This document shows, piece by piece, positions 12,788 through 64,000 of a stretch of DNA of 64,000 nt. Position 1 is the first letter of the stretch, and each line of letters starts with the position of its first letter. Position numbers and translations under genes: made by a program. The DNA is taken from NCBI GenBank assembly GCA_014686905.1, contig GCA_014686905.1_4093.1; one strand, written 5' to 3'. Below the pieces are notes generated by a model, which saw nothing but the letters and a program-made list of their open reading frames with translations, ran no database searches and was not told the origin of the DNA. The stretch is from a phage.

Positions 12788-13753
12788 GTGAAAAAGCTTG
12801 ATTTAAATACAATTGCCGAAGAAGTTCTGGATGAATGTTTTGCTAATGAAGAAGTCAACACACTAGAAGCCTTAGATTTCGTTGAAGATAAAGATGAAAA
12901 TGAAGGTAAAGTACAAAGCAGTTTCAAATATAATATTACACTTAAGCGACCACCAAATGTTTCCAATGAAGATCTAATTCGTGATATTCAAGCTGGTATC
13001 AATATAAAGAAAAACACTGAACTGTTAGTTCGTTACAATTATGGACTTATTATTGATGTAGCAAGTAAATGTACTTGTTATATCCCATTTGAAGATAAGA
13101 TTTCATATGGTGTTGAGGGGTTCATGAGAGCACTAAAAACCTTTGATCTTAATAAGAATGTTAAGTTCATTACCTATGCTTCTTCTAGTATTTACATGAC
13201 AGTTTATAACGAAAGTTCTGACGCTAACTATATGGTACACTTCCCACGTTATATGAGTGTTCATAAGATCAAAGTAAAAAGATTCTGCCAGGAATATATG
13301 CGTAAACATGGTGTTCGCCCAACTCCTGAAATAATCTCAGAGGGTACTGGGATTGAGATTCAGCATGTTAATAACTGTTTGTTATTTCAAAGCGAATACA
13401 CTTCTCTGGATGCACCATTAGACGGTGTTACCGATGGTACACTAGGTGACATTATTCATTCACCTGCTTCTGATTTTAACCTCAATGTTGATAGTATTCG
13501 TGCACCTTTACGTTATGCTATCAATGAACTGACTAACGAATTGAGTACTAAAGAACGTGAGATTATCCAGCGTGTTCATGGTCTAGGTGAATATGAACCT
13601 GAAACGCTTCGTGAGATTGCTGATAATGGTTTTGTTGATGATAATGGAAAATATGTTAAATCCCGTTCATCAATACACCGAAAGTACAGTGAAGCTATGC
13701 AAAAGCTTAAGAAGTTAGTACTTGCAAAAGGGTACGAATACGAAGATTTCTAA
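12788..13753 (+). CDS. sigma-70 family RNA polymerase sigma factor (321 aa, GTG start)
   Basis: Region 2/3-like FITYASSSIYMTV...HFPRYMSVHKIKVKRFCQEYMRKHGVRPTPEII, region 4-like LSTKEREIIQRVHGLGEYEPETLREIA...SRSSIHRKYSEAMQKLKK; SD AGGAG 6 nt upstream. Confidence 0.8.
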   Translation: MKKLDLNTIAEEVLDECFANEEVNTLEALDFVEDKDENEGKVQSSFKYNITLKRPPNVSNEDLIRDIQAGINIKKNTELLVRYNYGLIIDVASKCTCYIPFEDKISYGVEGFMRALKTFDLNKNVKFITYASSSIYMTVYNESSDANYMVHFPRYMSVHKIKVKRFCQEYMRKHGVRPTPEIISEGTGIEIQHVNNCLLFQSEYTSLDAPLDGVTDGTLGDIIHSPASDFNLNVDSIRAPLRYAINELTNELSTKEREIIQRVHGLGEYEPETLREIADNGFVDDNGKYVKSRSSIHRKYSEAMQKLKKLVLAKGYEYEDF

Positions 13754-21076: not shown

Positions 21077-21268
21077 ATGTTGATTTATCAAGGTGATAAT
21101 ATTCGTGTTATGCAGCATCCCTACTTACAAATCTTTGATGTGCAGCAGTATATGGAAGGTGATGACCCAAGAACCTATGGTCGTAAGTATGATTACTTCA
21201 CTGTAAAGCAGTGTAACAATATTAACGAAGTACGACAATTAGTTCAAGAACTTCAAAACAAAGGTTGA
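21077..21268 (+). CDS. hypothetical protein (63 aa)
   Basis: Start MLIYQGDN with SD AAGGA; track ORF starts 21023. Confidence 0.45.
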   Translation: MLIYQGDNIRVMQHPYLQIFDVQQYMEGDDPRTYGRKYDYFTVKQCNNINEVRQLVQELQNKG

Positions 21269-29730: not shown

Positions 29731-30110
29731 TGCGACAAATGTACAAAGTAACCGAGCTAAACAAGCGTCTGGTTAAACAATCTATGTTTGAGGATAAAGA
29801 GTCTTACTATAACTTTAAACGTGCAGTAGAGGCTTCTATCCACATTCAGAAGCTTAAAGAACGTGGTTGTATTATTCTGGAAAATGGTTCGGAAGTTGTA
29901 ACGGATGACTTTAGTGTAGCGTTTGATGTTTCACCTGACGGGACGCTATCAATGCCCCGCTTAGGAACTGGAAACATGACTGTTTGGGTTGGCTTCACTA
30001 TGGGGAATGTACCTGGTACTGTGTACGTAGATGATGCAGAATTGAAAGACAGTTTCAAAAACTTATCTTATCTTGAACCACAATACGCACATGAAATGAA
30101 TTTATTTTGA
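29730..30110 (+). CDS. hypothetical protein (~126 aa)
   Basis: Start MRQMYKV with SD GGGAG. Confidence 0.55.
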   Translation: MRQMYKVTELNKRLVKQSMFEDKESYYNFKRAVEASIHIQKLKERGCIILENGSEVVTDDFSVAFDVSPDGTLSMPRLGTGNMTVWVGFTMGNVPGTVYVDDAELKDSFKNLSYLEPQYAHEMNLF

Positions 30111-30112
30111 GT

Positions 30113-30139
30113 TGACAAACACATTCAGTACTGTATAAT
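30113..30139 (+). promoter_or_regulatory. sigma70-like promoter TTGACA-N15-TATAAT with CAGTACTG spacer
   Basis: TTGACA 30113-30118, TGTATAAT 30132-30139. Confidence 0.5.
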
Positions 30140-30186
30140 GCTTATCAAGGGGATGAACTTCTCATCCCTACAATCGAGGAACTACC

Positions 30187-30741
30187 ATGATTACTTTTAA
30201 GAAAACTGCTAACCACATCCATGAAATCTACATTAACGGTCACAAAGCTGGCCTTCTTCGTTTACTCGCCCATCACCCTGATGCTACCGTATCTGATAAT
30301 GAACCTAAAGATTGGCGTGTCTTTTTCTTTGGAAAGTACAGTGATTTTCAAGTATCAAACCTGAAGAACATTCGTTCAGTATGCACGTTAAATGAAATTA
30401 AAGAAAAGTTAGCACAAGCATTGAAAACTAATCCAGATGGTGTTCTTCCACCTGATAACTTTGTAGAGAAAGGTTATGCCTTAGCTCATTTCAAAGATGG
30501 TACTATTCAATCTATCAGTACTGAATATGAATATCATTGGACTGAGTACTTCACTTATGGTTCGAGTAATACATTGATGGATTCACGTAGTAAATTGGAA
30601 GAAGTACTGACTCGTATGAATGAACGCGAGCGTCAGTTATATGACAAACCAGAAATGTGGAGTTCAACTTACATTGACCGTATTGACTATGTTATTATGA
30701 CTCCAATCTTTGACACTGCTTACTATGATTCTTTGAAATAA
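30187..30741 (+). CDS. hypothetical protein (184 aa)
   Basis: ORF, SD GAGGAA. Confidence 0.6.
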   Translation: MITFKKTANHIHEIYINGHKAGLLRLLAHHPDATVSDNEPKDWRVFFFGKYSDFQVSNLKNIRSVCTLNEIKEKLAQALKTNPDGVLPPDNFVEKGYALAHFKDGTIQSISTEYEYHWTEYFTYGSSNTLMDSRSKLEEVLTRMNERERQLYDKPEMWSSTYIDRIDYVIMTPIFDTAYYDSLK

Positions 30742-31877: not shown

Positions 31878-31910
31878 GGGTTGACTTCGGTCAGCCCTTT
31901 TTGCTATAAT
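31878..31910 (+). terminator. terminator-promoter cassette (consensus copy)
   Basis: GGGTTGACTTCGGTCAGCCC + T5, TATAAT 18 nt after TTGACT, then ATTATTTCATCAA box. Confidence 0.7.
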
Positions 31911-54609: not shown

Positions 54610-55281
54610 ATGAAACTTAATGCACACAGCAAACAATACCTTAAGCACTTTAAGTACCTCAATAGTATTCAGGCAGAATCAGTTACATCTGCATATACGT
54701 ATCACCCGAATGTACTAAAGAAACGAAATAAAAAGGAAAAATCCAGTACAAATGGAGTTAACGTATCAAAGAACCTTGAATTGTACATGAAGAAAAATAA
54801 TATAGCTGTTCATTATATGAATATCTATAATACTGATTTAAAAGTATTGAGTACTAATACGAGCACAAAGGTACTAAAGAACGCATCCTTCATCATCAAT
54901 ATGCAGTTGGATAATACCCCGTGCACTTTAATGCTATACTTCGGGAATACATACTTCTTCGGGAATTGTAACACCTCCCACGATGTCAATACAGCACAAT
55001 TCCAAATGGGTGGCATATACAATATGGGTTCAAAAAAAGTACACGAGAATATGCACTTCTGGCAAGCACAACGTACAGAAGAAACTAAATCAATTGTAGA
55101 TTTCCTCAAAGAACTAGAACACAAAGAACTACAGGAAGAAGAACTATTCATGTACAGTACTGTAATCGATAATCCAGTACTCTATAAAAACGCGTACAAT
55201 CTGACAAAACATGTACAGGAAATTATCAGTACTAATAAGAAAATGCATCACCTCATTACGTATATTACAAACTATGTATAA
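54610..55281 (+). CDS. hypothetical protein (223 aa) embedded in small-ORF array
   Basis: Long ORF; stop overlaps start of next small ORF. Confidence 0.55.
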   Translation: MKLNAHSKQYLKHFKYLNSIQAESVTSAYTYHPNVLKKRNKKEKSSTNGVNVSKNLELYMKKNNIAVHYMNIYNTDLKVLSTNTSTKVLKNASFIINMQLDNTPCTLMLYFGNTYFFGNCNTSHDVNTAQFQMGGIYNMGSKKVHENMHFWQAQRTEETKSIVDFLKELEHKELQEEELFMYSTVIDNPVLYKNAYNLTKHVQEIISTNKKMHHLITYITNYV

Positions 55282-55456
55282 AGAATACTACCAAGAACAT
55301 CTCCCAATGCATCTCCAACACCTTGTACCCAAAGAACCAATAGGAATAAAAGATCACGCAAAAATAATGTTCCAACAATGTACTAAGTACACGCTCATAT
55401 ACGATGATAATCCATATATGCTGTACTACGTAGTAATGCTAACATTCAGGTACTAA
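55274..55456 (+). CDS. small-ORF array member (60 aa)
   Basis: MYKEYYQEHLPMHLQHLVP...VVMLTFRY. Confidence 0.55.
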   Translation: MYKEYYQEHLPMHLQHLVPKEPIGIKDHAKIMFQQCTKYTLIYDDNPYMLYYVVMLTFRY

Positions 55457-55457
55457 T

Positions 55458-55637
55458 ATGCACAAACATAAAGAATTCTACCTCTCGTACCTTAATTCCG
55501 ATATAGTAACATCCAATACCTTCAGTACTAAAATTATCTATAATGAATTAATAAAAGAATGTATTAAAGGTGCTATTAACCCTAAAGATACGTATGACTT
55601 GTACTATGCAGTACTAACCCTTGTTTTCACGAAATAA
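55458..55637 (+). CDS. small-ORF array member (59 aa)
   Basis: MHKHKEFYLSYL...AVLTLVFTK; TAATATG junction. Confidence 0.5.
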   Translation: MHKHKEFYLSYLNSDIVTSNTFSTKIIYNELIKECIKGAINPKDTYDLYYAVLTLVFTK

Positions 55638-55645
55638 CACATAAT

Positions 55646-55837
55646 ATGAATAACCACAAAGAATACTACATAGAGAAACTCCCAATGTATCTCCAACACC
55701 TTGTACCAAACGTTGCATTGGGTATAGAAAAAAACTACGAAAAAGACTACTTCATTCAGTGCACTAAATCCTCGATATATATTGACGACTATAATCGAGT
55801 ACTGTATCACATCCTTTTACTAATATATAGGTACTAA
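55646..55837 (+). CDS. small-ORF array member (63 aa)
   Basis: MNNHKEYYIEKLPMYLQHLVP...ILLLIYRY. Confidence 0.6.
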   Translation: MNNHKEYYIEKLPMYLQHLVPNVALGIEKNYEKDYFIQCTKSSIYIDDYNRVLYHILLLIYRY

Positions 55838-55838
55838 T

Positions 55839-56021
55839 ATGCACAAAGAATACTACACACAATTTCTCCCCAGCATTTTTGAACACTACGCCAGATATAA
55901 AGTCCCTCTGGATAACGATTTGGCAGTACTGGGATTCAATAACTGCATAGAACGAAGTATAGAAAATAGTAGTAGTTATGACCAGCTATATAACACTATC
56001 CTACTTATATTCAGGTACTAA
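55839..56021 (+). CDS. small-ORF array member (60 aa)
   Basis: MHKEYYTQFLP...ILLIFRY; TAATATG junction. Confidence 0.6.
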   Translation: MHKEYYTQFLPSIFEHYARYKVPLDNDLAVLGFNNCIERSIENSSSYDQLYNTILLIFRY

Positions 56022-56022
56022 C

Positions 56023-56211
56023 ATGCATAAAGAATACTACACAAAATATTTCCCAATGTACCTCAGAACTAATCTATTAGATAAACCTCGCGGTATCAAT
56101 GCACAAAATGATAAAGTGTATTTTACTATGTGCACTAAAGCATGTATACTAGATTTTGACAGCTACCATCGAGTACTGTATCATACCCTGTACCTAGCTT
56201 TCGTATTCTAA
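56023..56211 (+). CDS. small-ORF array member (62 aa)
   Basis: MHKEYYTKYFPMYL...LYLAFVF. Confidence 0.55.
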   Translation: MHKEYYTKYFPMYLRTNLLDKPRGINAQNDKVYFTMCTKACILDFDSYHRVLYHTLYLAFVF

Positions 56212-56220
56212 GAGAACAAT

Positions 56221-56406
56221 ATGCATAAAGAATTCTACTTAAGCCACCTCGATCTAAACTCCCAAATGCTTATACCACAAATCCCAATAGATATCAAGGA
56301 TAAGAAAAATACCGAACAATTCATTTACCATACACAGTGTGCGATCACCCCAAATTACATTCCATATGAATTGTACTACATTCTCGCCCTAATATATAGG
56401 TACTAA
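56221..56406 (+). CDS. small-ORF array member (61 aa)
   Basis: MHKEFYLSHL...ILALIYRY. Confidence 0.6.
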   Translation: MHKEFYLSHLDLNSQMLIPQIPIDIKDKKNTEQFIYHTQCAITPNYIPYELYYILALIYRY

Positions 56407-56407
56407 T

Positions 56408-56593
56408 ATGCATAGAGAATACTACACACAATTTGTTAAAGGGAACTACAAACATGCCGTACCCAGAACCCCTTTAAATTTTCATGACCCAAGTACTATA
56501 TTCTTGTTTAATGACGCAATACGTACAGTACTCAATACTAAAGATGAAGATGTGCAGTACGTATTCTTACTATTACTTATATACAGACACTAA
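56408..56593 (+). CDS. small-ORF array member (61 aa)
   Basis: MHREYYTQFV...LLLLIYRH. Confidence 0.6.
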   Translation: MHREYYTQFVKGNYKHAVPRTPLNFHDPSTIFLFNDAIRTVLNTKDEDVQYVFLLLLIYRH

Positions 56594-56598
56594 CTAAT

Positions 56599-56808
56599 AT
56601 GAATAAAGAACATAAAGAATTCTACTCCAAATACATAAGCCCCTCAGAACAAATGTTTCTAAGGACTACACCACCTTTAAGTACTAATACATATTTCGGC
56701 AGAGTATGCTACAATAATTGTATTCAAATGACTTTAAACGCAAACGAAGATGATAACAGTACTAACCTGTACTCAGGTATCATAGGTATACTATTCCTGT
56801 ATGAATAA
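56599..56808 (+). CDS. small-ORF array member (69 aa)
   Basis: MNKEHKEFYSKYIS...IGILFLYE (close to 53586 member). Confidence 0.6.
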   Translation: MNKEHKEFYSKYISPSEQMFLRTTPPLSTNTYFGRVCYNNCIQMTLNANEDDNSTNLYSGIIGILFLYE

Positions 56809-56989
56809 TTACAAAGACTTCTATTTGAATACACTACCTACTGTACTTTCTCTAAGTGCTCAATGTAAAATCCCGCTGGATAATGCTTACGCCAGATATA
56901 GCTATTCCATAACTGTTAATCGATGTATAGAGAATCATTGCAGTACTAACCAGTACTATAACATAATCCTACTTATATTCAGGTACTAA
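56801..56989 (+). CDS. small-ORF array member (62 aa)
   Basis: MNNYKDFYLNTLP...IILLIFRY. Confidence 0.6.
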   Translation: MNNYKDFYLNTLPTVLSLSAQCKIPLDNAYARYSYSITVNRCIENHCSTNQYYNIILLIFRY

Positions 56990-56990
56990 T

Positions 56991-57173
56991 ATGAATAAAG
57001 AACATAAAGAATTCTATATACGAAAACTAACATTCGTCCCCGTAAGAATATATAAAGAATGCGACCCAAGATTATACCTATGGCACTTCAATGAGTGCAT
57101 AAAAGATTCTATATACCCTAAGAACTACAAAGAACAATTGTGCTCAGTACTAACACTAGTACTATCATATTAA
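56991..57173 (+). CDS. small-ORF array member (60 aa)
   Basis: MNKEHKEFYIRKL...VLTLVLSY. Confidence 0.55.
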   Translation: MNKEHKEFYIRKLTFVPVRIYKECDPRLYLWHFNECIKDSIYPKNYKEQLCSVLTLVLSY

Positions 57174-57188
57174 TTAATAGAGAATACT

Positions 57189-57380
57189 ATGTATAAAAAC
57201 TTCTATATAAGTAAACTAAAAGAAAATGAACAAGTATGGATTAGATCTATAATTCCACTGGCATTTAATAGATATGCATTTAACAGATGTACCGAGATTG
57301 CTATAGACCCTTATAATATTAAAGAGAATGTACAGTATAATCAGTACTACTATATCTTAATGCTTATATATAGGAAGTAA
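57189..57380 (+). CDS. small-ORF array member (63 aa), last unit
   Basis: MYKNFYISKL...YILMLIYRK. Confidence 0.55.
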   Translation: MYKNFYISKLKENEQVWIRSIIPLAFNRYAFNRCTEIAIDPYNIKENVQYNQYYYILMLIYRK

Positions 57381-58429
57381 TTAAACACAAGTAGACAGGG
57401 GAAGCTCCTAGTGAACAACCTTTATGTACAGGCGAATTGTTAAAATTCAGCCTGGACAAATGCGATCACTAGGATTCTCCCCAGGCTAAACCCCGTAATC
57501 ATAGGTAGTCATAAGTAATCATATATAAACATTTATATGAGCACCGTAGAATCACAGAATGATTATATATGATTCAGTACTGATTAGTATAGACAAGAAT
57601 GCTCAAGAATGCACGGGAAGGATTCAGTACTGATATGCCACTAAGTAGGCAGAGGAAGTCTGCCGTACTTTTTAGTTTCCAAGCTCCTTTTCCATTTTTC
57701 AAATTACATCAAATGTAATCAAAAGTAATCACGCAATGATTAGTACTGAATTATTACTTTCACCTTAATTTCAATTACCCCTTTACCCTTCGGGGTAAAA
57801 TTCAATTACCCCTTGAGGCTCCAGCAAAAAGTTGGTTAGTACTCCATCCTAAATCTCGATCCTAAAAATTTTGGAGTACCTATGAAATAAAAGTTGGATC
57901 TTCGAAAGTTGAAATTTACGTTGGGACGTTTATGATTTGTGGGATATAATGATGTTTGTAGTCGGGTAGTTCTCAAGAATATCAGTACTGAATAATGAAA
58001 GAAAGCTATTGACATTATGATTCAGTACTGTATAATGTTCTACATAGAGAGATGAGTTGCTGCGAACAATTCATTTACTCTATCTCCTGTCGTGAGACAG
58101 TACAGAAAAGATAGTTCCTCCTGTGGTGGTACATCTTTTTGAACCTCATATGAAAATCGTAATAACAGTACTGATATTAACAGAATGGTGTCAGTACTGA
58201 TTTTAATCTAAAGCATTATGCCACCAGCTTGTGCTGGTGGATTCCCTCTAACAGTATTCAGTACTACATGATGGTCTTCATCCTCCTAGGGTAACATAGT
58301 GAGGGCTATGATGGCAGTACTGAATACTCCCTTTCAAAAGATAGATCTATGGTATAGTACTGACGGATTTTGGGTGTAGTTACCCTGGATGGATTTTGGG
58401 CGTAGATATGTCTAGCCCTCCAGAAGTCT

Positions 58430-58545
58430 GGAAGTAAAGATGGCTATCCATCTAGACGGCTAAACGGCTAGATGGCTGGATGGCTAGACGTTTGGACGGC
58501 TAAACGGCTAGATGGTTACACGTCTGGAAGTATAGACGGCTAAAT
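58430..58545. repeat. iteron-like short direct repeats
   Basis: GACGGCTAAACGGCTAGATGG twice plus partial third copy; GTCTGGAAGTA twice. Confidence 0.6.
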
Positions 58546-59158
58546 CAAAATTTTATTTTGTTTTTCCAATAGTTCCCCTACCGCGTGGGGATAGTTTCCC
58601 CGCAGTATCTGGCGTTAGATTTTTCTGAATCTGGAATCATTATCTTATAAACTGGGGGCAATGTCAACGACCTGGACGGATATTTTTAAAAATTTTTTCA
58701 GTACTGAATTTTGGGCGTAACTATGCACCCGGTGGGCTTGAGTCTTTCTCGACTTGATGGAACTATTATACAGTACTGGAAAAATAAAGCAATACCCTGG
58801 ATGAAAAAAGTTTTAATTAATTTGCTTGCCATCCTGGGCCGGACTATGGTACTATATTTCAGTACTGAGAAAGTGCGTTTACCTGCTAGGGTGCGGGAGT
58901 GTATCCTTTTTTTATATCTTGAATTTTGGACGGATCTTCCCACCCCCTGGGGTATCCGCTTTCTCGCGTCTATGTAGTAATTATACGCTTTTTCAGGATC
59001 AAGTCAATACCTAAAAACAAAATAATTGAAAATAATTTAACGCGTTTAAACGGCCCGTAACGCCCTGGAATGATTAGAATGGTGCAAATGTATAGCTTAG
59101 GTGTATTAATGCGTTAGAATGCGTCTGAGGCCGTTTTATGGGGTGTAGTAGTGATTTG

Positions 59159-59251
59159 GTTGATTCAGTACTGAATAATAGTACTCCTATATAGAAAGAT
59201 AGTTCCCCTGGATTGATTCAGTACTGAATAATAGTACTCCTATATAGAAAG
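59159..59251. repeat. ~38-bp direct repeat, two copies
   Basis: TTGATTCAGTACTGAATAATAGTACTCCTATATAGAAAGA twice, separated by ~15 bp. Confidence 0.7.
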
Positions 59252-59283
59252 AAAACTATTTTAAAAGTATTTGTAGAAAGTAC

Positions 59284-59343
59284 TTGCACCGTACTGATAA
59301 AAGCGTATAATGTTTTACATCGAGAGCGGGAACACTTCCCGCT
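59284..59343 (+). promoter_or_regulatory. PeSL-like cassette: promoter + 5' stem-loop
   Basis: TTGCAC-N16-TATAAT, GTTTTACAT, stem AGCGGGAA-CAC-TTCCCGCT. Confidence 0.6.
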
Positions 59344-59366
59344 ACACTTTAAGAGAGATTAATACG

Positions 59367-59729
59367 ATGGCAACTCAAATCACCAAAATTATTGCTAACC
59401 TGGTTAACTTCCGCGACGAGATGAAAGATCTTCCGGCGGCGACGGTTAAAACTCACATTGACGCATACCGCGAACTGATTAAAATGCTGCCGCTTAAGCG
59501 TGAACAATACGCCGCTACCGTGATGCTTGATGCGATGATCCATAAGATGATCGCCAGTGATTTGACGATGGTTTATCAGTATATGGGCGAAAATTTCGCG
59601 GTGTGTAGTAAGCCAGTACCAGGGATGGCAACAACTGAGGAATTGCACGGCTTAAACTTAAAACAAGATGCATGGGATAATATGCCTCGTTTCCTGGTAT
59701 GGGCTGACAGTGGCAAAATTTACAAATAA
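59367..59729 (+). CDS. hypothetical protein (~120 aa)
   Basis: Start MATQITKI after SD AGAGAGA; GC-richer codon usage. Confidence 0.6.
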   Translation: MATQITKIIANLVNFRDEMKDLPAATVKTHIDAYRELIKMLPLKREQYAATVMLDAMIHKMIASDLTMVYQYMGENFAVCSKPVPGMATTEELHGLNLKQDAWDNMPRFLVWADSGKIYK

Positions 59730-59743
59730 GTTTAATAAAGTAC

Positions 59744-59802
59744 TTGCAAACTATGTTTAATGGCGTATAATGTTTTACATCAGGTGGGGAATAGTTCCCC
59801 AC
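59744..59802 (+). promoter_or_regulatory. PeSL-like cassette
   Basis: TTGCAA-N16-TATAAT, GTTTTACAT, stem GTGGGGAA-TAG-TTCCCCAC (covaries with other copies). Confidence 0.6.
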
Positions 59803-59824
59803 TATATAAGAGGATTAAAAAAAA

Positions 59825-60064
59825 ATGGCTAAATCAAAAATGTTCTTAGGTCACAAAAACAAAACTCATTGGAATGTAAGCCTGTGGATTAATAACGATG
59901 AGGGATTGTATCGGTTGGCCCTGGACTTTATTGCCGCCAATACTAATCGCAATGATGCGGCCCGTCATATGATGTTATTTTTAGAACAGACTGGACAAGA
60001 TAAAACACCGGACGGATTCAAATATAGCACTACTGCGATCCGTGCGGCGATGGTTGGAATGTAA
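59825..60064 (+). CDS. hypothetical protein (79 aa)
   Basis: ORF, SD AGAGGA. Confidence 0.55.
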   Translation: MAKSKMFLGHKNKTHWNVSLWINNDEGLYRLALDFIAANTNRNDAARHMMLFLEQTGQDKTPDGFKYSTTAIRAAMVGM

Positions 60065-60150
60065 TAGAATTTATTTAAAGTACTATCATTTTTTTGCGAT
60101 AGTACTTTATAATAGTGTTTTATTCATACACCAACGATAAGGGCAACAGC

Positions 60151-60417
60151 ATGAATATTAAGTATTTTGCGACGCGTGAACAAGCTCGGATCGCCGCACG
60201 CCAGGACGGGGCAACGTTTAAAGATATGGGAGCGGGATCGGCAAGTGGTGAACGTTGGGCCATTGTAAAGCGTAGTACGGCCAGATCATTACAGTACTGG
60301 TTAGCGGCCTTAAAAAGTCCCGATAGTGTATCGCGTCGAGTGGTAGAAATAAAGCTCGACCGAAAGGGCAACCGCGTGACCGTGTACCGTACTAAAAAGA
60401 TTGCAGTACTTGAATAA
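60151..60417 (+). CDS. hypothetical protein (~88 aa)
   Basis: Start MNIKYFATRE within track ORF 60115..60417. Confidence 0.55.
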   Translation: MNIKYFATREQARIAARQDGATFKDMGAGSASGERWAIVKRSTARSLQYWLAALKSPDSVSRRVVEIKLDRKGNRVTVYRTKKIAVLE

Positions 60418-60424
60418 AAAGTAC

Positions 60425-60483
60425 TTGCAAACTATGTTTAAAGGCGTATAATGTTTTACATCGAGAGCGGGAACTCTTCCCGC
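60425..60483 (+). promoter_or_regulatory. PeSL-like cassette
   Basis: TTGCAA-N16-TATAAT, GTTTTACAT, stem GCGGGAA-CTC-TTCCCGC. Confidence 0.6.
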
Positions 60484-60504
60484 CTATAACCTGGAGTAAT
60501 AAAA

Positions 60505-60735
60505 ATGACTAATATGTATATGACTGAAGTTAAAACCGTAAAAGATACTACCACGAATAAAACTACTTACTTACAGCGGATCTGTGGTGTATGGCAACGT
60601 ATCAGCAAATCAAAGTACTTTAAATTAACATCATATGCAAACCGTTCTGATTCATTCAGTACTGAAATAAAAGGTAATAAAGTACACCAATACGGCACTT
60701 ATTATTATTACAGCCTGGACGCGATTGCAGTATAA
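60505..60735 (+). CDS. hypothetical protein (76 aa)
   Basis: ORF, SD GGAG. Confidence 0.55.
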   Translation: MTNMYMTEVKTVKDTTTNKTTYLQRICGVWQRISKSKYFKLTSYANRSDSFSTEIKGNKVHQYGTYYYYSLDAIAV

Positions 60736-60984
60736 GCAGTTTACAAATCTTTACAATTGCCGGTATTGACTTATTTTGTCAGTACTGGCATAATGTATTC
60801 ATTGGCAGATAAGCCGTAGCCCATAGGGTGCGGGAGTGTATCTATAGAAAAATTAGTTTAGTATAGTTACAATTGTGCACCCGGTGGGTTAGCTGTTGTC
60901 ATGGGGTATATTATGCCAGTACTTGATAATGCTGTCAATACTTTTTTTTACTATCCAGTACAGAAAACTATTTTTAAAAAGTAC

Positions 60985-61053
60985 TTGCAAACTATGTTTA
61001 AAGGCGTATAATGTTTTACATCAGGACGGGGAACGAAATAAGTAACTTCCCGT
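60985..61053 (+). promoter_or_regulatory. PeSL-like cassette (longer loop)
   Basis: TTGCAA-N16-TATAAT, GTTTTACAT, stem ACGGGGA...TCCCGT; no ORF immediately downstream. Confidence 0.5.
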
Positions 61054-61103
61054 TAAGTAGCCCAGGAGTAAGGCACACGAAAAACTCCCCTGATAAAATA
61101 GTT

Positions 61104-61130
61104 TGACAAATGTTTTTAAAAGCGTATAAT
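61104..61130 (+). promoter_or_regulatory. sigma70-like promoter TTGACA-N15-TATAAT
   Basis: Directly upstream of gene 61163; tandem with cassette at 60985. Confidence 0.5.
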
Positions 61131-61162
61131 ACTTACATCAACTACTGAATGAGGGTTATAAA

Positions 61163-61774
61163 ATGAAAACTATCACTACTACTACTTTCGTTATGGATTT
61201 TTCTGAATTGAACGCAGAACAAAAAACGTCAGCTATCGAACTGGTTCGGGAACGTGAAAAAAACTCAAACGACAATTATTTTTCTGAAAGTGAAATTGAA
61301 TACTATAAAGAAACAGTACTACCGGAATATGGCATTAATGACGCTGAAATACAATTCAGTGGTTTTTGGTCCCAGGGTGACGGTGCATCAATCAGTACTG
61401 ACCACGTTGACGCAGTGAAGTTTTTACGCAAGGTTAGAGCGTTAACTAAGTATCGCTCAATCCGTCACCTGCTGAATGAAGATGATTTGGCGATGAGTGT
61501 AAAGCGTTCTCACTCCCACTACTCGCATGAGAATACTGTAAGCGGGTACATTGAATCGGCTTACACTGATTTAACCGCAAAACAAGAAACGTTAGTTAAT
61601 GAGCTTGAGGAACTACTCACTGATACTATTCGTGAATTGTCCCGTAAGTTGTACCGTGATTTAGAGAATGCATATGAGGATCAATTCACTACTGAAAACA
61701 TTACGGCACTGATTGAGGGTAACGAATATCAATTCAATGTTATTGATGGCGTAGTAGAATCAATCGAATATTAA
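61163..61774 (+). CDS. hypothetical protein (203 aa)
   Basis: ORF, SD GAGGG. Confidence 0.6.
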   Translation: MKTITTTTFVMDFSELNAEQKTSAIELVREREKNSNDNYFSESEIEYYKETVLPEYGINDAEIQFSGFWSQGDGASISTDHVDAVKFLRKVRALTKYRSIRHLLNEDDLAMSVKRSHSHYSHENTVSGYIESAYTDLTAKQETLVNELEELLTDTIRELSRKLYRDLENAYEDQFTTENITALIEGNEYQFNVIDGVVESIEY

Positions 61775-61784
61775 TTCAAAAAGT

Positions 61785-61844
61785 ACTGGACACTAAGCAA
61801 TAAAGGCGTATAATACTTTATATCGAGAGCGGGAATAGTTCCCG
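61785..61844 (+). promoter_or_regulatory. PeSL-like cassette
   Basis: TGGACA-N16-TATAAT, stem AGCGGGAA-TAG-TTCCCGCT. Confidence 0.55.
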
Positions 61845-61866
61845 CTACTAATGAGGAATACTACAA

Positions 61867-62031
61867 ATGAATACTTTTACCTTCGCTCAATTGAACGCCC
61901 TGGATGTATTGTCTGATGCTTTGCGGGATGCAACTGAAAGCGGTTTATTTGACAATGTTGACATTCACCCTGATGTAATTAATAATTTTTGTGATGCTAT
62001 CGCAGAAGTACTGGAAGATCTAAAAAAATAA
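61867..62031 (+). CDS. hypothetical small acidic protein (~54 aa)
   Basis: MNTFTFAQLNALDVL..., SD GAGGAA; coordinates +/-1. Confidence 0.45.
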   Translation: MNTFTFAQLNALDVLSDALRDATESGLFDNVDIHPDVINNFCDAIAEVLEDLKK

Positions 62032-62041
62032 TAGAAAGTAC

Positions 62042-62100
62042 TTGCAATTAGTTTTTAGTACTGTATAATAGTTTACATAGAGGGGAGAAATGGTTCTCCC
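62042..62100 (+). promoter_or_regulatory. PeSL-like cassette
   Basis: TTGCAA-N16-TATAAT (CAGTACTG spacer), stem GGGAGAA-ATGG-TTCTCCC. Confidence 0.55.
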
Positions 62101-62119
62101 TGGTAATGAGGAAAATAAA

Positions 62120-62341
62120 ATGGCTAATATCACTACTCTTTCTCAACTGGAAGCACTGGTTAAATCTATGCGGGAACATGCAGACAATATCGGCGTAAAA
62201 GATCCAGCCGTTTGCTTCTGCGACGAAATGAATGATGATACACTGGTAATAGCAGAAGTACAAGATATTTCTAACTATTCATCGCGTTACACTGGCGGCG
62301 TAGCAAATAAAGGTGACTTCTGTTTATACCTTACCAAATAA
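62120..62341 (+). CDS. hypothetical protein (~73 aa)
   Basis: Start MANITTLSQ after SD GAGGAA; the track ORF's ATG at 62090 lies in the stem-loop. Confidence 0.55.
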   Translation: MANITTLSQLEALVKSMREHADNIGVKDPAVCFCDEMNDDTLVIAEVQDISNYSSRYTGGVANKGDFCLYLTK

Positions 62342-62509
62342 CAACGCGGGGAGATAATAACTCCCCGTTACTTTTTCAGTACTGAATCATTTAATAGACG
62401 GATCTCGGCACCCTGTGGGTTAGTGACTGTATCGTCTTTATGTAGTAATTATGCCAGTACTGGATGCAGTTGTCAACAATTATTTTTCAAATACTTTTTA
62501 TTAAAATAC

Positions 62510-62564
62510 TTGCTATTAGTTTTTAAACGCGTATAATGTTTTGCATAGGGGGAGCGGTTCCCCC
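62510..62564 (+). promoter_or_regulatory. PeSL-like cassette
   Basis: TTGCTA-N16-TATAAT, GTTTTGCAT, stem GGGGGA-GCGGT-TCCCCC. Confidence 0.55.
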
Positions 62565-62585
62565 TGGTAACTAAGGAATAAGAAA

Positions 62586-62819
62586 ATGCTTGAACAAATC
62601 AAATCAACGTCTGCTAATGTAACGGGAACGGTATCACACTTTATTGGTGATGAATCGCGGGGCGTTCCCTATTGTGCTGTACATGTAAACACTGAGGGTA
62701 ACTACTGGTTTACGGTTTACGGATCATATTCATTTGGACGGCCAGGGCATCAAAAAATTCTGGATAAAGTACAACCAACGGGTAAAAATATCACTGCCGA
62801 AATGTTTTATAAAAACTAA
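62586..62819 (+). CDS. hypothetical protein (77 aa)
   Basis: ORF, SD AAGGAA. Confidence 0.55.
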   Translation: MLEQIKSTSANVTGTVSHFIGDESRGVPYCAVHVNTEGNYWFTVYGSYSFGRPGHQKILDKVQPTGKNITAEMFYKN

Positions 62820-62828
62820 TAAAATACT

Positions 62829-62886
62829 TGATAATAGTTTTTAGTACTGTATAATATTTTACATAGCACGGGGGAGCGGTTCCCCC
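62829..62886 (+). promoter_or_regulatory. PeSL-like cassette (stem-loop identical to 62510 copy)
   Basis: TTGATA-N15-TATAAT, stem GGGGGA-GCGGT-TCCCCC + CTGGTAACTAAGGA. Confidence 0.55.
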
Positions 62887-62906
62887 TGGTAACTAAGGAT
62901 AATCAA

Positions 62907-63206
62907 ATGAAAATTGCAATCATCGCCCTGGCTTTATCTGTTTCCTCTTTCTCTGTTAATGCGTCGTTAGATGTACCTAGTGAAAAATTCATTCAGTGCA
63001 CCGTAGCGATGACCGATGAAAGTACTGGCGAGATTGTTTTAAAGGATTTAGAGATCCAGCCAGAAGCATTTAAAAACGGCCCGTTCCATGAAGAAGACGA
63101 AAACGGTAGCACAACAATTTATTATGATGCAAGTACTAAACGCGGTTCGGTCACTGTAATGGATACAGAGAAAGTAACACACACAGGAGTAATTAACTGT
63201 TTATAA
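62907..63206 (+). CDS. secreted hypothetical protein (99 aa)
   Basis: Signal peptide ...SVNA/SLD. Confidence 0.6.
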   Translation: MKIAIIALALSVSSFSVNASLDVPSEKFIQCTVAMTDESTGEIVLKDLEIQPEAFKNGPFHEEDENGSTTIYYDASTKRGSVTVMDTEKVTHTGVINCL

Positions 63207-63212
63207 ATCACT

Positions 63213-63238
63213 AGCCCACTCATACAGTGGGCTTTTTT
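63213..63238 (+). terminator. rho-independent terminator
   Basis: AGCCCACT-CATA-CAGTGGGCT + T6. Confidence 0.65.
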
Positions 63239-63283
63239 ATTTTTGTAGTACTGCATACTTTGAAAATAGTTTTAAGAAAGTAG

Positions 63284-63311
63284 TTGACATTACCGCAGAA
63301 AAGCGTAGAAT
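63284..63311 (+). promoter_or_regulatory. sigma70-like promoter TTGACA-N16-TAGAAT
   Basis: Followed by GTATTACAT and long leader. Confidence 0.45.
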
Positions 63312-63434
63312 GTATTACATCAAGACGGGGAGCACTAAGTAGACCGCCAGTAAGTCGAACGAAAAACTGGACACGTCGAGAAAACTTTGATACACTATCT
63401 AACGTAAACTAAACTTTAATTGAGGAATTATATA

Positions 63435-63917
63435 ATGGCTAATGTAAAATCATTCATCAAAGCACTGGTAGCAAATGAAACTAACGTAGCGGCAGAGATC
63501 CTGGCAGAACTGGATAACGATACCATGAAAGCAGTACGCAACAATTTTAACATTGCGTACAGTGAAGCTAAAGAACTGCAAGCCAAAAAGGTAGCAGAAC
63601 TGGAAGAACAGAAAAAAGCCCGTGAAGCAGAACTACAAGCAACAATTGAAAGTATCCAGTCGGCGGTGTCTGGATTGGATCTGGAAGTGGTTGTTGAAAT
63701 GGCACATAAAGCCCTGGCGGTTAAGTACGGTGAAGATAAGCCGGAATCTAAGCCTAAAAAATGGATTCAGGAACGCGTAGCGGTAGTACTTGATAACGGT
63801 GAAGAACATTTGATTCCTGTACGCGGTAACTGCATTGCGGTAGTACTGGACGCTATCAAAGAAAGCGGTATGACTCGCGAGGAATGGATCGAAGCTCATC
63901 GCAAAGTTGAAGCATAA
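63435..63917 (+). CDS. hypothetical protein (~160 aa)
   Basis: Start MANVKSFIK after SD GAGGAA; helical Ala/Glu/Lys-rich. Confidence 0.6.
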   Translation: MANVKSFIKALVANETNVAAEILAELDNDTMKAVRNNFNIAYSEAKELQAKKVAELEEQKKAREAELQATIESIQSAVSGLDLEVVVEMAHKALAVKYGEDKPESKPKKWIQERVAVVLDNGEEHLIPVRGNCIAVVLDAIKESGMTREEWIEAHRKVEA

Positions 63918-63937
63918 CAATTAAAGTACTGAATCAA

Positions 63938-63966
63938 TAGCCCACCTTAAACAGTGGGCTTTTTTG
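63938..63966 (+). terminator. rho-independent terminator
   Basis: AGCCCAC-loop-GTGGGCT + T6. Confidence 0.6.
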
Positions 63967-64000
63967 TGTCTATAGTATTCCAGTCCACTAGCACCGCCTA

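Follow-up and report, generated by a model that had tools for sequence, protein, structure and literature searches.

PeSL-like promoter and leader-hairpin cassettes in the terminal-repeat gene array of an Asteriusvirus jumbo phage

Near one end of a 64,000-nt stretch of phage DNA (GenBank assembly GCA_014686905.1, contig GCA_014686905.1_4093.1; the whole stretch is called the window below), a promoter followed by a short hairpin recurs in front of one small gene after another. The locus, flagged at positions 59284-63311, raises the question of what the hairpin does: whether it ends the transcript of the preceding gene, serves the gene that follows, acts as folded DNA or has no role at all. The first-pass annotation had matched the repeats with the promoter-early stem-loop (PeSL) cassettes of T4-type phages. 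According to the present analysis, it is highly probable that the unit is a sigma70 promoter cassette with a transcribed hairpin which is under selection, is not a terminator and doubles as recombination homology. The data presented here directly support the anatomy and orientation of the cassettes, the selection on pairing and the lack of a terminator tail, and likewise the position of the array in the terminal repeat, the occurrence of junctions within cassettes and the sharing between phage lineages.

Anatomy and genomic setting of the cassettes

Eight cassettes of about 90 bp were identified at window positions 59276-62909 by reading the sequence and by script extraction. Their -35 boxes start at 59284, 59744, 60425, 60985, 61787, 62042, 62510 and 62828. 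The order of the elements is an A/T-rich stretch ending in AAAGTAC, the -35 box, a 16-nt spacer, TATAAT, the segment GTTTTACAT, a linker, the hairpin, a Shine-Dalgarno sequence (SD) and ATG. The 16-nt spacer and TATAAT are found in all eight cassettes, followed by GTTTTACAT itself or by a variant with 1-3 differing positions, whereas the -35 box occurs as TTGCAA, TTGCAC, TTGCTA, TTGATA or TGGACA. Most of the promoter copies resulted in 10-12 hexamer matches of 12, with the TTGCAC promoter at 59284 scoring 9, and the 8-9 nt upstream of the promoter are 81% A+T. The linker between the GTTTTACAT-type segment and the hairpin is 0-5 nt long, and 5-10 nt separate the hairpin from the SD. The hairpin consists of 7-9 bp with a G/A-rich 5' arm, a loop of 3-4 nt (14 nt in the copy at 60985) and a C/T-rich 3' arm. 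The 16-mer GTATAATGTTTTACAT was detected 13 times in the window when up to 3 mismatches were allowed, four of these copies being exact, compared with 3.9 ± 2.1 occurrences in shuffled sequences (0 of 100 shuffles reached 13). The sequence reading, the scripts and this enrichment all confirm that the repeated promoter/hairpin/SD unit is real. The number of about nine copies given in the first-pass annotation holds for the promoters, whereas the hairpin is present in eight only; the four stems named there were all found in the window.

The individual cassettes, all on the plus strand, differ mainly in their stems. Cassette 1 (59276-59369; model R1, 83.3 bits) has the -35 box TTGCAC at 59284-59289, the -10 box at 59306-59311, GTTTTACAT, an 8-bp hairpin at 59325-59343 (AGCGGGAA/TTCCCGCT, loop CAC), an SD and the ATG at 59367. 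In cassette 2 (59736-59827; 82.4 bits), with boxes at 59744 and 59766 and the ATG at 59825, the hairpin at 59783-59803 has 9 bp (GGTGGGGAA/TTCCCCACT, loop TAG). Cassette 3 (60417-60507; 90.0 bits), with boxes at 60425 and 60447 and the ATG at 60505, carries a 7-bp hairpin at 60467-60483 (GCGGGAA/TTCCCGC, loop CTC). The stem AGCGGGAA/TTCCCGCT returns with 8 bp and the loop TAG at 61828-61846 in cassette 5 (61779-61869; -35 box TGGACA at 61787, -10 box at 61809, ATG at 61867), which is the left edge of a slot with variable gene content. The right edge of that slot is cassette 6 (62034-62122; boxes at 62042 and 62064, ATG at 62120), whose hairpin at 62082-62101 (GGGGAGAA/TTCTCCCT, loop ATGG) has 8 bp including one G.U pair. 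The hairpin of cassette 7 (62502-62588; boxes at 62510 and 62532, ATG at 62586) at 62547-62565 also has 8 bp, with a G.U closing pair (AGGGGGAG/TTCCCCCT), and that of cassette 8 (62820-62909; boxes at 62828 and 62850, ATG at 62907) at 62870-62886 has 7 bp (GGGGGAG/TTCCCCC).

Seven of the eight cassettes run straight into SD and ATG. The exception is the variant cassette 4 (60977-61095; boxes at 60985 and 61007), in which a hairpin with a 14-nt loop at 61025-61054 (GACGGGGA/TTCCCGTT) precedes another one, each of the two being closed by CAGG/CCTG, and no open reading frame (ORF) comes directly after. The 60985-61130 unit comprises the cassette promoter, this structured leader as an RNA of about 75 nt with two hairpins closed by CAGG/CCUG, and a second promoter ahead of gene g5; a paralogue with 85% identity is located at 13299-13488 of locus L002. 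The second promoter (TTGACA-N16-TATAAT, 61103-61130; unit 61095-61165, 40.0 bits), which is followed by an SD and the ATG at 61163, belongs to the same family and has no hairpin. The same applies to the promoter at 63284 (63276-63437; 30.6 bits, z = +1.24), where TTGACA-N16-TAGAAT is followed by GTATTACAT, a degenerate 5' arm and a leader of about 120 nt to g10.

Over its entire length, the flagged stretch shares 95-97% identity with the Escherichia jumbo phages EC.P1, slurp01, JP4 and E9.1 of the genus Asteriusvirus; 121Q, PBECO4 and G17 are further relatives. By sequence identity, the window is assigned to an Asteriusvirus, i.e. a 121Q/PBECO4-like jumbo coliphage, and the T4-type context assumed in the first-pass annotation was not borne out. 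Only 51-69% of the flagged stretch is covered by several close relatives, which pointed to differing gene content. Within the window, all hairpin cassettes of the array family are confined to 59.2-63 kb, and in G17 and slurp01 the array goes on for about 14 kb past the window end. About 27 hairpin cassettes and about a dozen promoters without hairpin were counted in slurp01; per genome, about 25-35 repeats of the cassette unit are present.

The array coincides with the direct terminal repeat of 21,525 bp annotated by the depositors of phage vB_Ec-M-J. All 35 sense-strand model matches in the first 32 kb of that genome lie inside the terminal repeat, and none in the next 10.5 kb, where the genes are tightly packed. 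Position 1 of vB_Ec-M-J, the start of the terminal repeat, maps to window position 57,644, and the starts of several other records fall within about 50 bp of it. By this mapping, the terminal-repeat gene array begins with the flagged region. In phage CBB, 11 of the 18 RpoD-like promoters, with UP-like elements, are located in a region of short hypothetical genes, and three lie on the terminal repeat (PMC5259590). The array resembles this arrangement and the pre-early genes of T5 in having strong host-type promoters over small genes in or near a long terminal repeat which presumably enters the cell first. The analogy to T5, and to what has been proposed for the related phage CBB (PMC5259590), makes it probable that the array genes are the first to be expressed, i.e. 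immediate-early.

Around the start of the terminal repeat, about 1.9 kb (57,380-59,280) are non-coding, with no convincing ORF, and contain about 11 copies of an 8-bp periodic repeat, CTAGACGG, at 58,452-58,542. Directly before the genome end, at 55,211-57,380 (+), about 11 paralogous genes for proteins of about 60 amino acids (aa) each (MHKEYY...LLIFRY) are tightly arrayed in tandem.

Pairing, position and folding of the hairpin

A covariance model was seeded with ten in-register copies with an 8-bp stem, leaving out one copy with a 4-nt loop and the copy at 59766. It was searched against eight sources, namely the window, four Asteriusvirus loci, phi92, one Justusliebigvirus and one Klebsiella jumbo phage. 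At E <= 1e-5 the search resulted in 109 matches, every one in gene sense. The number of distinct hairpins was 36, and that of distinct arm pairs 29. In the alignment to the model, which leans towards structure and in which many of the 101 distinct rows are orthologues, 97.5% of the cells pair and all eight stem pairs have changes on both sides. The number of double-change cells was 121, compared with 33.5 ± 5.2 in column shuffles (0 of 500 reached 121), and sliding the 3' partner by 1-3 columns left at most 15. When 22 leaders were aligned with MAFFT and folded with RNAalifold, the same helix was recovered, with compensatory changes in five of seven pairs despite one-column slips. Paired changes were also seen between orthologues: where the window has GGGGGAG/TTCCCCC, both G17 and slurp01 have GGGGAG/TTCCCC, and the 121Q orthologue of cassette 1 has the stem GACGGGGG/CTCCCGTT. 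The covariation reported in the first-pass annotation is thus confirmed by the shuffled columns and by the independent folding. It had been taken there as evidence for selection on RNA structure; what the double changes establish is selection on pairing, whereas the choice between RNA and single-stranded DNA is not settled by covariation alone.

The two strands were compared in two ways. Among the distinct hairpins, 16 G.U wobble pairs with G in the 5' arm were counted versus nine A.C pairs, the latter mostly at stem ends or as loop-size artefacts of the alignment. When both strands of 45 hairpins were folded, six hairpins lost 3-4.7 kcal/mol on the opposite strand, and none lost more than 1.4 kcal/mol the other way. 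Together with the uniform gene-sense orientation, the wobble asymmetry and the strand folding lean towards a sense-strand RNA. The single-sequence z-scores are modest, only -1.2 to -3.8, because shuffled G-runs and C-runs also fold. The case for the hairpin therefore rests on its position and covariation and not on its energy.

From the -10 box, the transcription start was predicted at the A of ACAT, about 7 nt downstream. Counted from the -10 box the stem starts after 9-14 nt, and counted from the predicted start after 2-11 nt (median 6); it ends 16-24 nt (median 20) before the ATG. The hairpin is therefore predicted to lie past position +1, in the 5' untranslated region (UTR) of the gene it precedes. 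The 8 nt following the stem contain a mean of 2.1 T, and the longest T-run does not exceed 3 in 45 of the 46 distinct cassettes. No cassette hairpin was picked up in a terminator scan which detected the real terminators after g7, g9 and g10. Because of the missing T-run and the absence from the scan, the cassette hairpin is classified by its sequence as not being an intrinsic terminator. The hairpin is kept in the cassette at 62510, which follows a terminator, and in that at 59284, which has no sense-strand gene upstream; this argues for a service to the mRNA of the downstream gene and not to the 3' end of an upstream one.

In the minimum free energy (MFE) folds of the predicted leaders, the hairpin contributes -12 to -14 kcal/mol; all eight cassettes have a free SD, and seven of them also have a free AUG. 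The exception is cassette 1, where MFE and centroid folds alike have the AUG covered by pairing between CAUCG at the 5' end and CGAUG. A translational switch, in which the C-rich 3' arm would pair with the SD of its own gene, was rejected: the pairing energy with the own SD, -3.8 kcal/mol, was equal to that with the SDs of other cassettes and compares with about -11 to -14 kcal/mol for the hairpin. A lambdoid nut/boxB antitermination site was rejected as well, as the loops vary in sequence and length and no Rfam match was found. The Rfam search of the whole window at the gathering threshold resulted in one tRNA only and no cassette match; at an E-value threshold, 57300-64000 gave two sub-threshold Trp_leader matches, both on terminators, and none on the cassettes.

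Hairpins downstream of promoters were also seen elsewhere in the window. A lone promoter outside the array (30104-30190, +; TTGACA-N16-TATAAT) is followed by an 8-bp leader hairpin, GGGGATGA/TCATCCCC (z = -3.7), an SD and ATG, i.e. by a cassette-like architecture of unrelated sequence. At 58009-58130 (+), a perfect TTGACA-N16-TATAAT promoter with the start region GTTCTACAT, as in the cassettes, precedes two hairpins, the first of them long (16-bp MFE stem; 10 bp ungapped), and no ORF is present; this arrangement is kept in G17, slurp01 and 121Q.

Gene exchange, related elements and the role of the hairpin

Window positions 58900-64000 were compared with G17, 121Q, PBECO4 and SP27 by BLAST. In G17, the collinearity ends within the 3' arm of cassette 5 (at 61843) and returns at 62035, taken as the first base of cassette 6; three other genes replace g6. 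The breaks in 121Q are at 61778 and 62035, and the g8 orthologue is found upstream of g7; its junctions are 62546/62549 and 62817/62909, and every one of the 121Q junctions falls inside a cassette. In PBECO4, cassette 2 (59739-59818) is present twice, an extra gene being inserted between the copies. The breaks in SP27 are at 61869 and 62023, and one insertion lies outside the cassettes (63199/63227). In total, five of the six distinct junction sites among the four relatives fall in cassettes, which is not significant against a background of non-coding DNA only. The swaps of ORFs between cassettes for which the first-pass annotation had proposed a comparison of related genomes were thus found as insertions, replacements and relocations at these sites. 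The offsets of the junctions within the cassette are scattered from -5 to +90, which fits homologous rather than site-specific exchange, and as far as the alignments go the junctions are consistent with homologous exchange mediated by the cassettes.

Single genes together with part of a cassette are 80-93% identical to DNA of coliphages of about 137-152 kb outside Asteriusvirus; those checked were the Stephanstirmvirinae phages phi92 and JLBYU50 (Justusliebigvirus). The segment 60440-60738, comprising cassette 3 from the spacer on and g4, is 88% identical to JLBYU50, and the core of cassette 5 (61802-61845) is about 93% identical to intergenic DNA of phi92-like phages. Both phi92 and JLBYU50 have small-gene arrays of their own with similar promoter-hairpin-SD units and other stems, e.g. 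GCGGGGAAA/TTTCCCCGC and GGGCGGCA/TGCCGCCC; the same kind of unit occurs in the Klebsiella jumbo phage, e.g. GGAATGAA/TTCATTCC. Cassettes similar in sequence were found only in Asteriusvirus, Stephanstirmvirinae and that one Klebsiella jumbo phage, and a degenerate pattern scan of IMG/VR gave multi-copy matches only in contigs of Asteriusvirus size, with no wider spread.

The hexamer AGTACT occurs 224 times in the 64 kb, about 10-fold above the expectation from base composition, and CAGTACTG occurs 56 times. The sites lie in coding and non-coding DNA, and also just upstream of the -35 box and at the spacer end of many promoters (e.g. 59279-59284, 62056-62061). In slurp01, 211 sites were counted in 50 kb, and the phi92 locus is free of them. 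Of the two sites in JLBYU50, one lies within the module common with the window and the other 12 nt past the module end at the start of the next cassette; this distribution suggests that the module moved into JLBYU50 from an Asteriusvirus-like donor.

PeSLs are defined by a sigma70-like early promoter with an A/T-rich upstream stretch and a poly-G/poly-C stem-loop, followed by SD and ATG (PMC2839356). They have been described in the T4-like phages RB49/phi1, PST/T4 and nt-1/KVP40 (Arbiol et al. 2010, PMC2839356; Comeau et al. 2014, PMC4122927), where they cluster in hyperplastic regions, flank ORFans and recombine (PMC2839356; PMC4122927); mini-circles arising through such recombination of cassettes are a further PeSL feature (Arbiol et al. 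2010). Five subclasses were distinguished by the site of the stem-loop: upstream of the -35 box, over it, between the boxes, over the -10 box or just before the start (PMC2839356). The stem-loop was proposed, and in one case shown, to terminate upstream transcription; one RB49/phi1 stem-loop cut lacZ expression about as much as rrnB T1 (PMC2839356). The present cassettes share with PeSLs the composite of about 100 bp with an A/T-rich stretch, near-consensus sigma70 early promoter, G-tract/C-tract stem-loop, SD and start codon, the many repeats in a hyperplastic region of small genes with unknown function, and the location at insertion, deletion and replacement junctions between close relatives. 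In contrast to PeSLs, they occur in an Asteriusvirus, where they fill the terminal repeat, and their stem is found in the predicted leader, 9-14 nt after the -10 box, with no T-run; these differences make a terminator role unlikely and a role in the 5' UTR likely. The match with PeSLs proposed in the first-pass annotation consequently stands for composition, hyperplastic context and junctions, and fails for stem-loop placement and phage group. Because of these two departures, the cassettes are best described, on their sequence features, as a PeSL-like variant with a leader hairpin and not as PeSLs in the strict sense.

Composites with strict PeSL geometry are also present in the window. Seven of them were found, with -35 boxes starting at 21265, 24507, 24690, 27386, 31881, 33163 and 34577, all of the type aaaGGGTTGACTtcgGTCAGCCCtttttgcTATAAT, i.e. 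of the form aaaGGGTTGACTtcgGTCAGCCCtttttgyTATAAT, in which a canonical terminator hairpin contains the -35 box and its T-run is the spacer. In the example at 31881-31910, the 9-bp hairpin GGGTTGACT-tcg-GTCAGCCC includes the -35 box. Several small non-coding units of the array are driven by such a terminator-in-promoter composite. These composites are likewise repeated promoters with a hairpin, and unlike in the cassettes the hairpin is inside the promoter and not in the leader. The motif "promoter plus stem-loop" thereby covers at least two devices: in one of them a terminator is part of the promoter, in the other the hairpin belongs to the leader. Both are found in the window.

No description of the leader hairpin or of the cassette structure was found in the accessible papers on Asteriusvirus, RaK2, CBB, PA5oct, rV5, phi92 and T5, which gave only generic lists of RpoD-like promoters. 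The closest functional likeness is with stabilising mRNA leaders. According to work of Emory, Bouvet and Belasco listed in PMC3997798 (refs 93-95 therein), 5'-terminal stem-loops stabilise E. coli mRNAs against RNase E, and RNase E is a major factor in the decay of T4 early mRNAs (PMC3014915). The leaders of ompA and papA resemble the cassettes, as far as the predicted start holds, in having a stable hairpin near the mRNA 5' end, upstream of an exposed ribosome-binding site (RBS); they differ in that the predicted 5' tail of the cassettes, with a median of 6 nt, exceeds the classical limit for end-capping and that the cassette hairpin is part of a repeated mobile unit. The T7 gene 10 leader has a purine-rich 5' arm of the GGGAGA type and a 3' arm of the UUUCCC type, and resembles the cassettes in these two arms and in the exposed RBS.

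With a confidence somewhat above even, we interpret the unit as a modular immediate-early expression cassette whose hairpin is a sense-RNA leader element, acting as mRNA stabiliser and RBS insulator. The A/T-rich UP-like stretch and the near-consensus sigma70 promoter would serve the unmodified host RNA polymerase, and each cassette would supply a conserved initial transcribed sequence and an exposed SD. In the sense RNA, the 7-9-bp hairpin would form at a distance of about 6 nt from the predicted 5' end and of about 20 nt from the AUG downstream. In cis, it would hinder the 5'-end-dependent attack by RNases E and G and would give every gene the same RBS context, in transcripts from its own promoter and in read-through transcripts alike; neither effect would block translation. 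The repeated unit would also provide portable homology, so that at about 25-35 repeats genes could be inserted, replaced, relocated and exchanged, also with unrelated coliphages. Promoter activity, start site, early timing and the stabiliser/insulator role are what we infer in this scheme.

Several observations weigh against the stabiliser and insulator interpretation. The start site is only predicted from the -10 box. Classical 5'-terminal hairpins protect when the single-stranded 5' segment is 2-4 nt long, and the predicted 5' tail of 2-11 nt (median 6) is longer, so that protection would need an internal obstacle and not an end cap. The strand folding comparison of the 45 hairpins was not significant overall (Wilcoxon p = 0.14). 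About one quarter of the array promoters have no hairpin, which indicates that the hairpin is dispensable for expression. The apical pairs (GAA...UUC) and the purine-rich 5' arm are conserved beyond the needs of stability. Finally, the cassettes make up most of the non-coding DNA of the array, and junctions within them are therefore partly expected.

Of the other explanations, the one closest to the published PeSLs takes the stem-loop as a terminator, an attenuator or a 3'-exonuclease barrier for upstream transcripts which insulates neighbouring genes. The G-tract/C-tract composition and the intergenic position are those of the RB49/phi1 stem-loops (PMC2839356), and most of the array genes have no other terminator between them. 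However, a stem located after the predicted +1 would attenuate its own promoter too, no T-run follows it, canonical terminators are used where the array is interrupted, and hairpins are kept at 62510, after a terminator, and at 59284, with no sense-strand gene upstream; this explanation is considered unlikely. Equally doubtful is a regulon-wide RNA operator, in which a phage or host repressor or an endoribonuclease would read the hairpin in all immediate-early mRNAs and jointly time their shut-off or activation, much as T4 RegB or RegA act on early mRNAs. The two loop-proximal pairs are nearly invariant A-U (in 88 and 79 of about 95 rows), G-C pairs lie below them, purines make up 92% of the 5' arm, the distance between hairpin and ATG is narrow (16-24 nt), and the same element is kept in two unrelated phage groups. 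Such conservation could reflect recognition by a factor or merely recent common descent, including recent duplication, and it keeps the protein-operator model alive. On the other hand, the outer stem varies freely, no candidate protein was identified, and the loops differ widely (CAC, TAG, CTC, CGG, TGG, ATGG, ATGA, AAAC, ATATC; 3-5 nt, and 14 nt in the 60985-type copies).

Action of the hairpin at the DNA level, as a cruciform or single-stranded hairpin recombination site, as an N4-type hairpin promoter or as a palindrome for a dimeric repressor at +14 to +30, is judged very unlikely. The junctions between relatives do fall in cassettes, the structure is kept while the sequence varies as in integron attC sites, and N4 virion-polymerase promoters resemble a 7-9-bp stem with a 3-nt loop. 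However, the scattered junction offsets are those predicted by homologous exchange, a protein-bound palindrome would not select compensatory changes, and the spacing of the arms varies (3-5 nt, or 14 nt in the 60985-type copies). In addition, the G.T pairs of the sense strand are A.C mismatches on the template strand, and no recombinase or virion polymerase was linked to the array, although none was searched for. The most specific form of this idea, in which virulent phages would have an integron-like gene-cassette system with the hairpins as its structure-specific recombination sites, the fold being read on single-stranded DNA and units of one gene plus one cassette captured and exchanged among Asteriusvirus, Stephanstirmvirinae and Klebsiella jumbo phages, has the slightest probability of all. 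The evidence leans against it, as the junctions are scattered and the wobble pairs fit sense-strand RNA; an attC-like site was rejected on the offsets of -5 to +90 with no fixed crossover, no integrase search having been made. It is also highly improbable, only marginally less so than the integron-like system, that the hairpin is functionless and was carried along with a promoter spread by duplication. The cassettes are clearly paralogues and some promoters of the family presumably work with no hairpin, but drift would have broken the stems, in contrast to the 29 distinct arm pairs, 97.5% pairing and double changes at all eight positions.

If the interpretation as an expression cassette with a stabilising and insulating leader hairpin is true, one portable control unit would be common to a whole class of immediate-early phage genes, at about 25-35 copies per genome and in the DNA presumed to enter the cell first. 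Such genes, many of them probably for host takeover or anti-defence, would be findable from sequence alone. The cassettes would further offer a concrete, testable route for the movement of genes between unrelated coliphages, and a natural library of strong promoter/5'-UTR parts with evolved compensatory variants.

Genes of the array and small non-coding units

For none of the ten genes of the stretch, all on the plus strand, is a function known; PHROG families of unknown function were matched by nine of them and DUF7249 by one, and g6 had no match. Cassette 1 is followed by g1 (59367-59729; 120 aa, phrog_7352) and cassette 2 by g2 (59825-60064; 79 aa, DUF7249/phrog_871). The latter is also present in phages of about 150 kb outside Asteriusvirus, and a paralogue with 73% identity occupies the variable slot of PBECO4 and SP27. 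No cassette precedes g3 (60151-60417; 88 aa). Upstream of it (60079-60113), the inverted repeat AGTACTATC-N10-GATAGTACT at 60079-60106 ends 1 nt before a TATAAT at 60108, so that a stem-loop adjoins the -10 box, and there is no clear -35 box. Cassette 3 precedes g4 (60505-60735; 76 aa), and the hairpin-less promoter at 61103 precedes g5 (61163-61774; 203 aa, phrog_5162).

The variable slot of the window is occupied by g6 (61867-62031; 54 aa), in whose place other genes are found in G17, 121Q, PBECO4 and SP27. It is followed by g7 (62120-62341; phrog_33522) and a bidirectional intrinsic terminator (62346-62368) which ends both g7 and a small unit on the minus strand. Besides its different place in 121Q, g8 (62586-62819; 77 aa, phrog_9227) is also found in phages of about 137-145 kb outside Asteriusvirus (W70, A7_1, LTH01). 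An N-terminal segment like a signal peptide was noted in g9 (62907-63206; 99 aa, phrog_31669), with its terminator at 63213-63233, and g10 (63435-63917) lies behind the hairpin-less promoter at 63284.

For two of these genes, the start codons in public records are likely mis-called, judging by the position of the SD. In the G17 record, g1 starts with the ATG inside TATAATG (59310), whereas the ATG preceded by an SD is at 59367. In the records of G17 and slurp01, g7 starts at 62090, an in-frame ATG in the hairpin loop (GGGGAGAA-ATGG-TTCTCCC), whereas the SD-preceded ATG is at 62120. Loops reading ATG(G/A) after a purine-rich arm seem to have misled the public annotation of g7.

In the gaps of the gene array, on both strands, lie small units with promoters of their own and no ORF, two of which converge. 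In the window they were located at 60766-60860 (+), 60938-60850 (-), 62476-62347 (-) and 58790-58690 (-), with variants at 58826-58910 (+) and 59007-58930 (-), and in L002 at 9655, 11319, 13258, 16531 and 18794. An invariant motif, R-CCC-AYN-GGG-TGC, is found about 25 nt after their sigma70-like promoter. The units had no Rfam match, and RNAalifold gave an invariant 4-bp hairpin only, with no covariation. The exact motif occurs four times in the window compared with 0.2 expected, and one copy of the unit is conserved in a Klebsiella jumbo phage.

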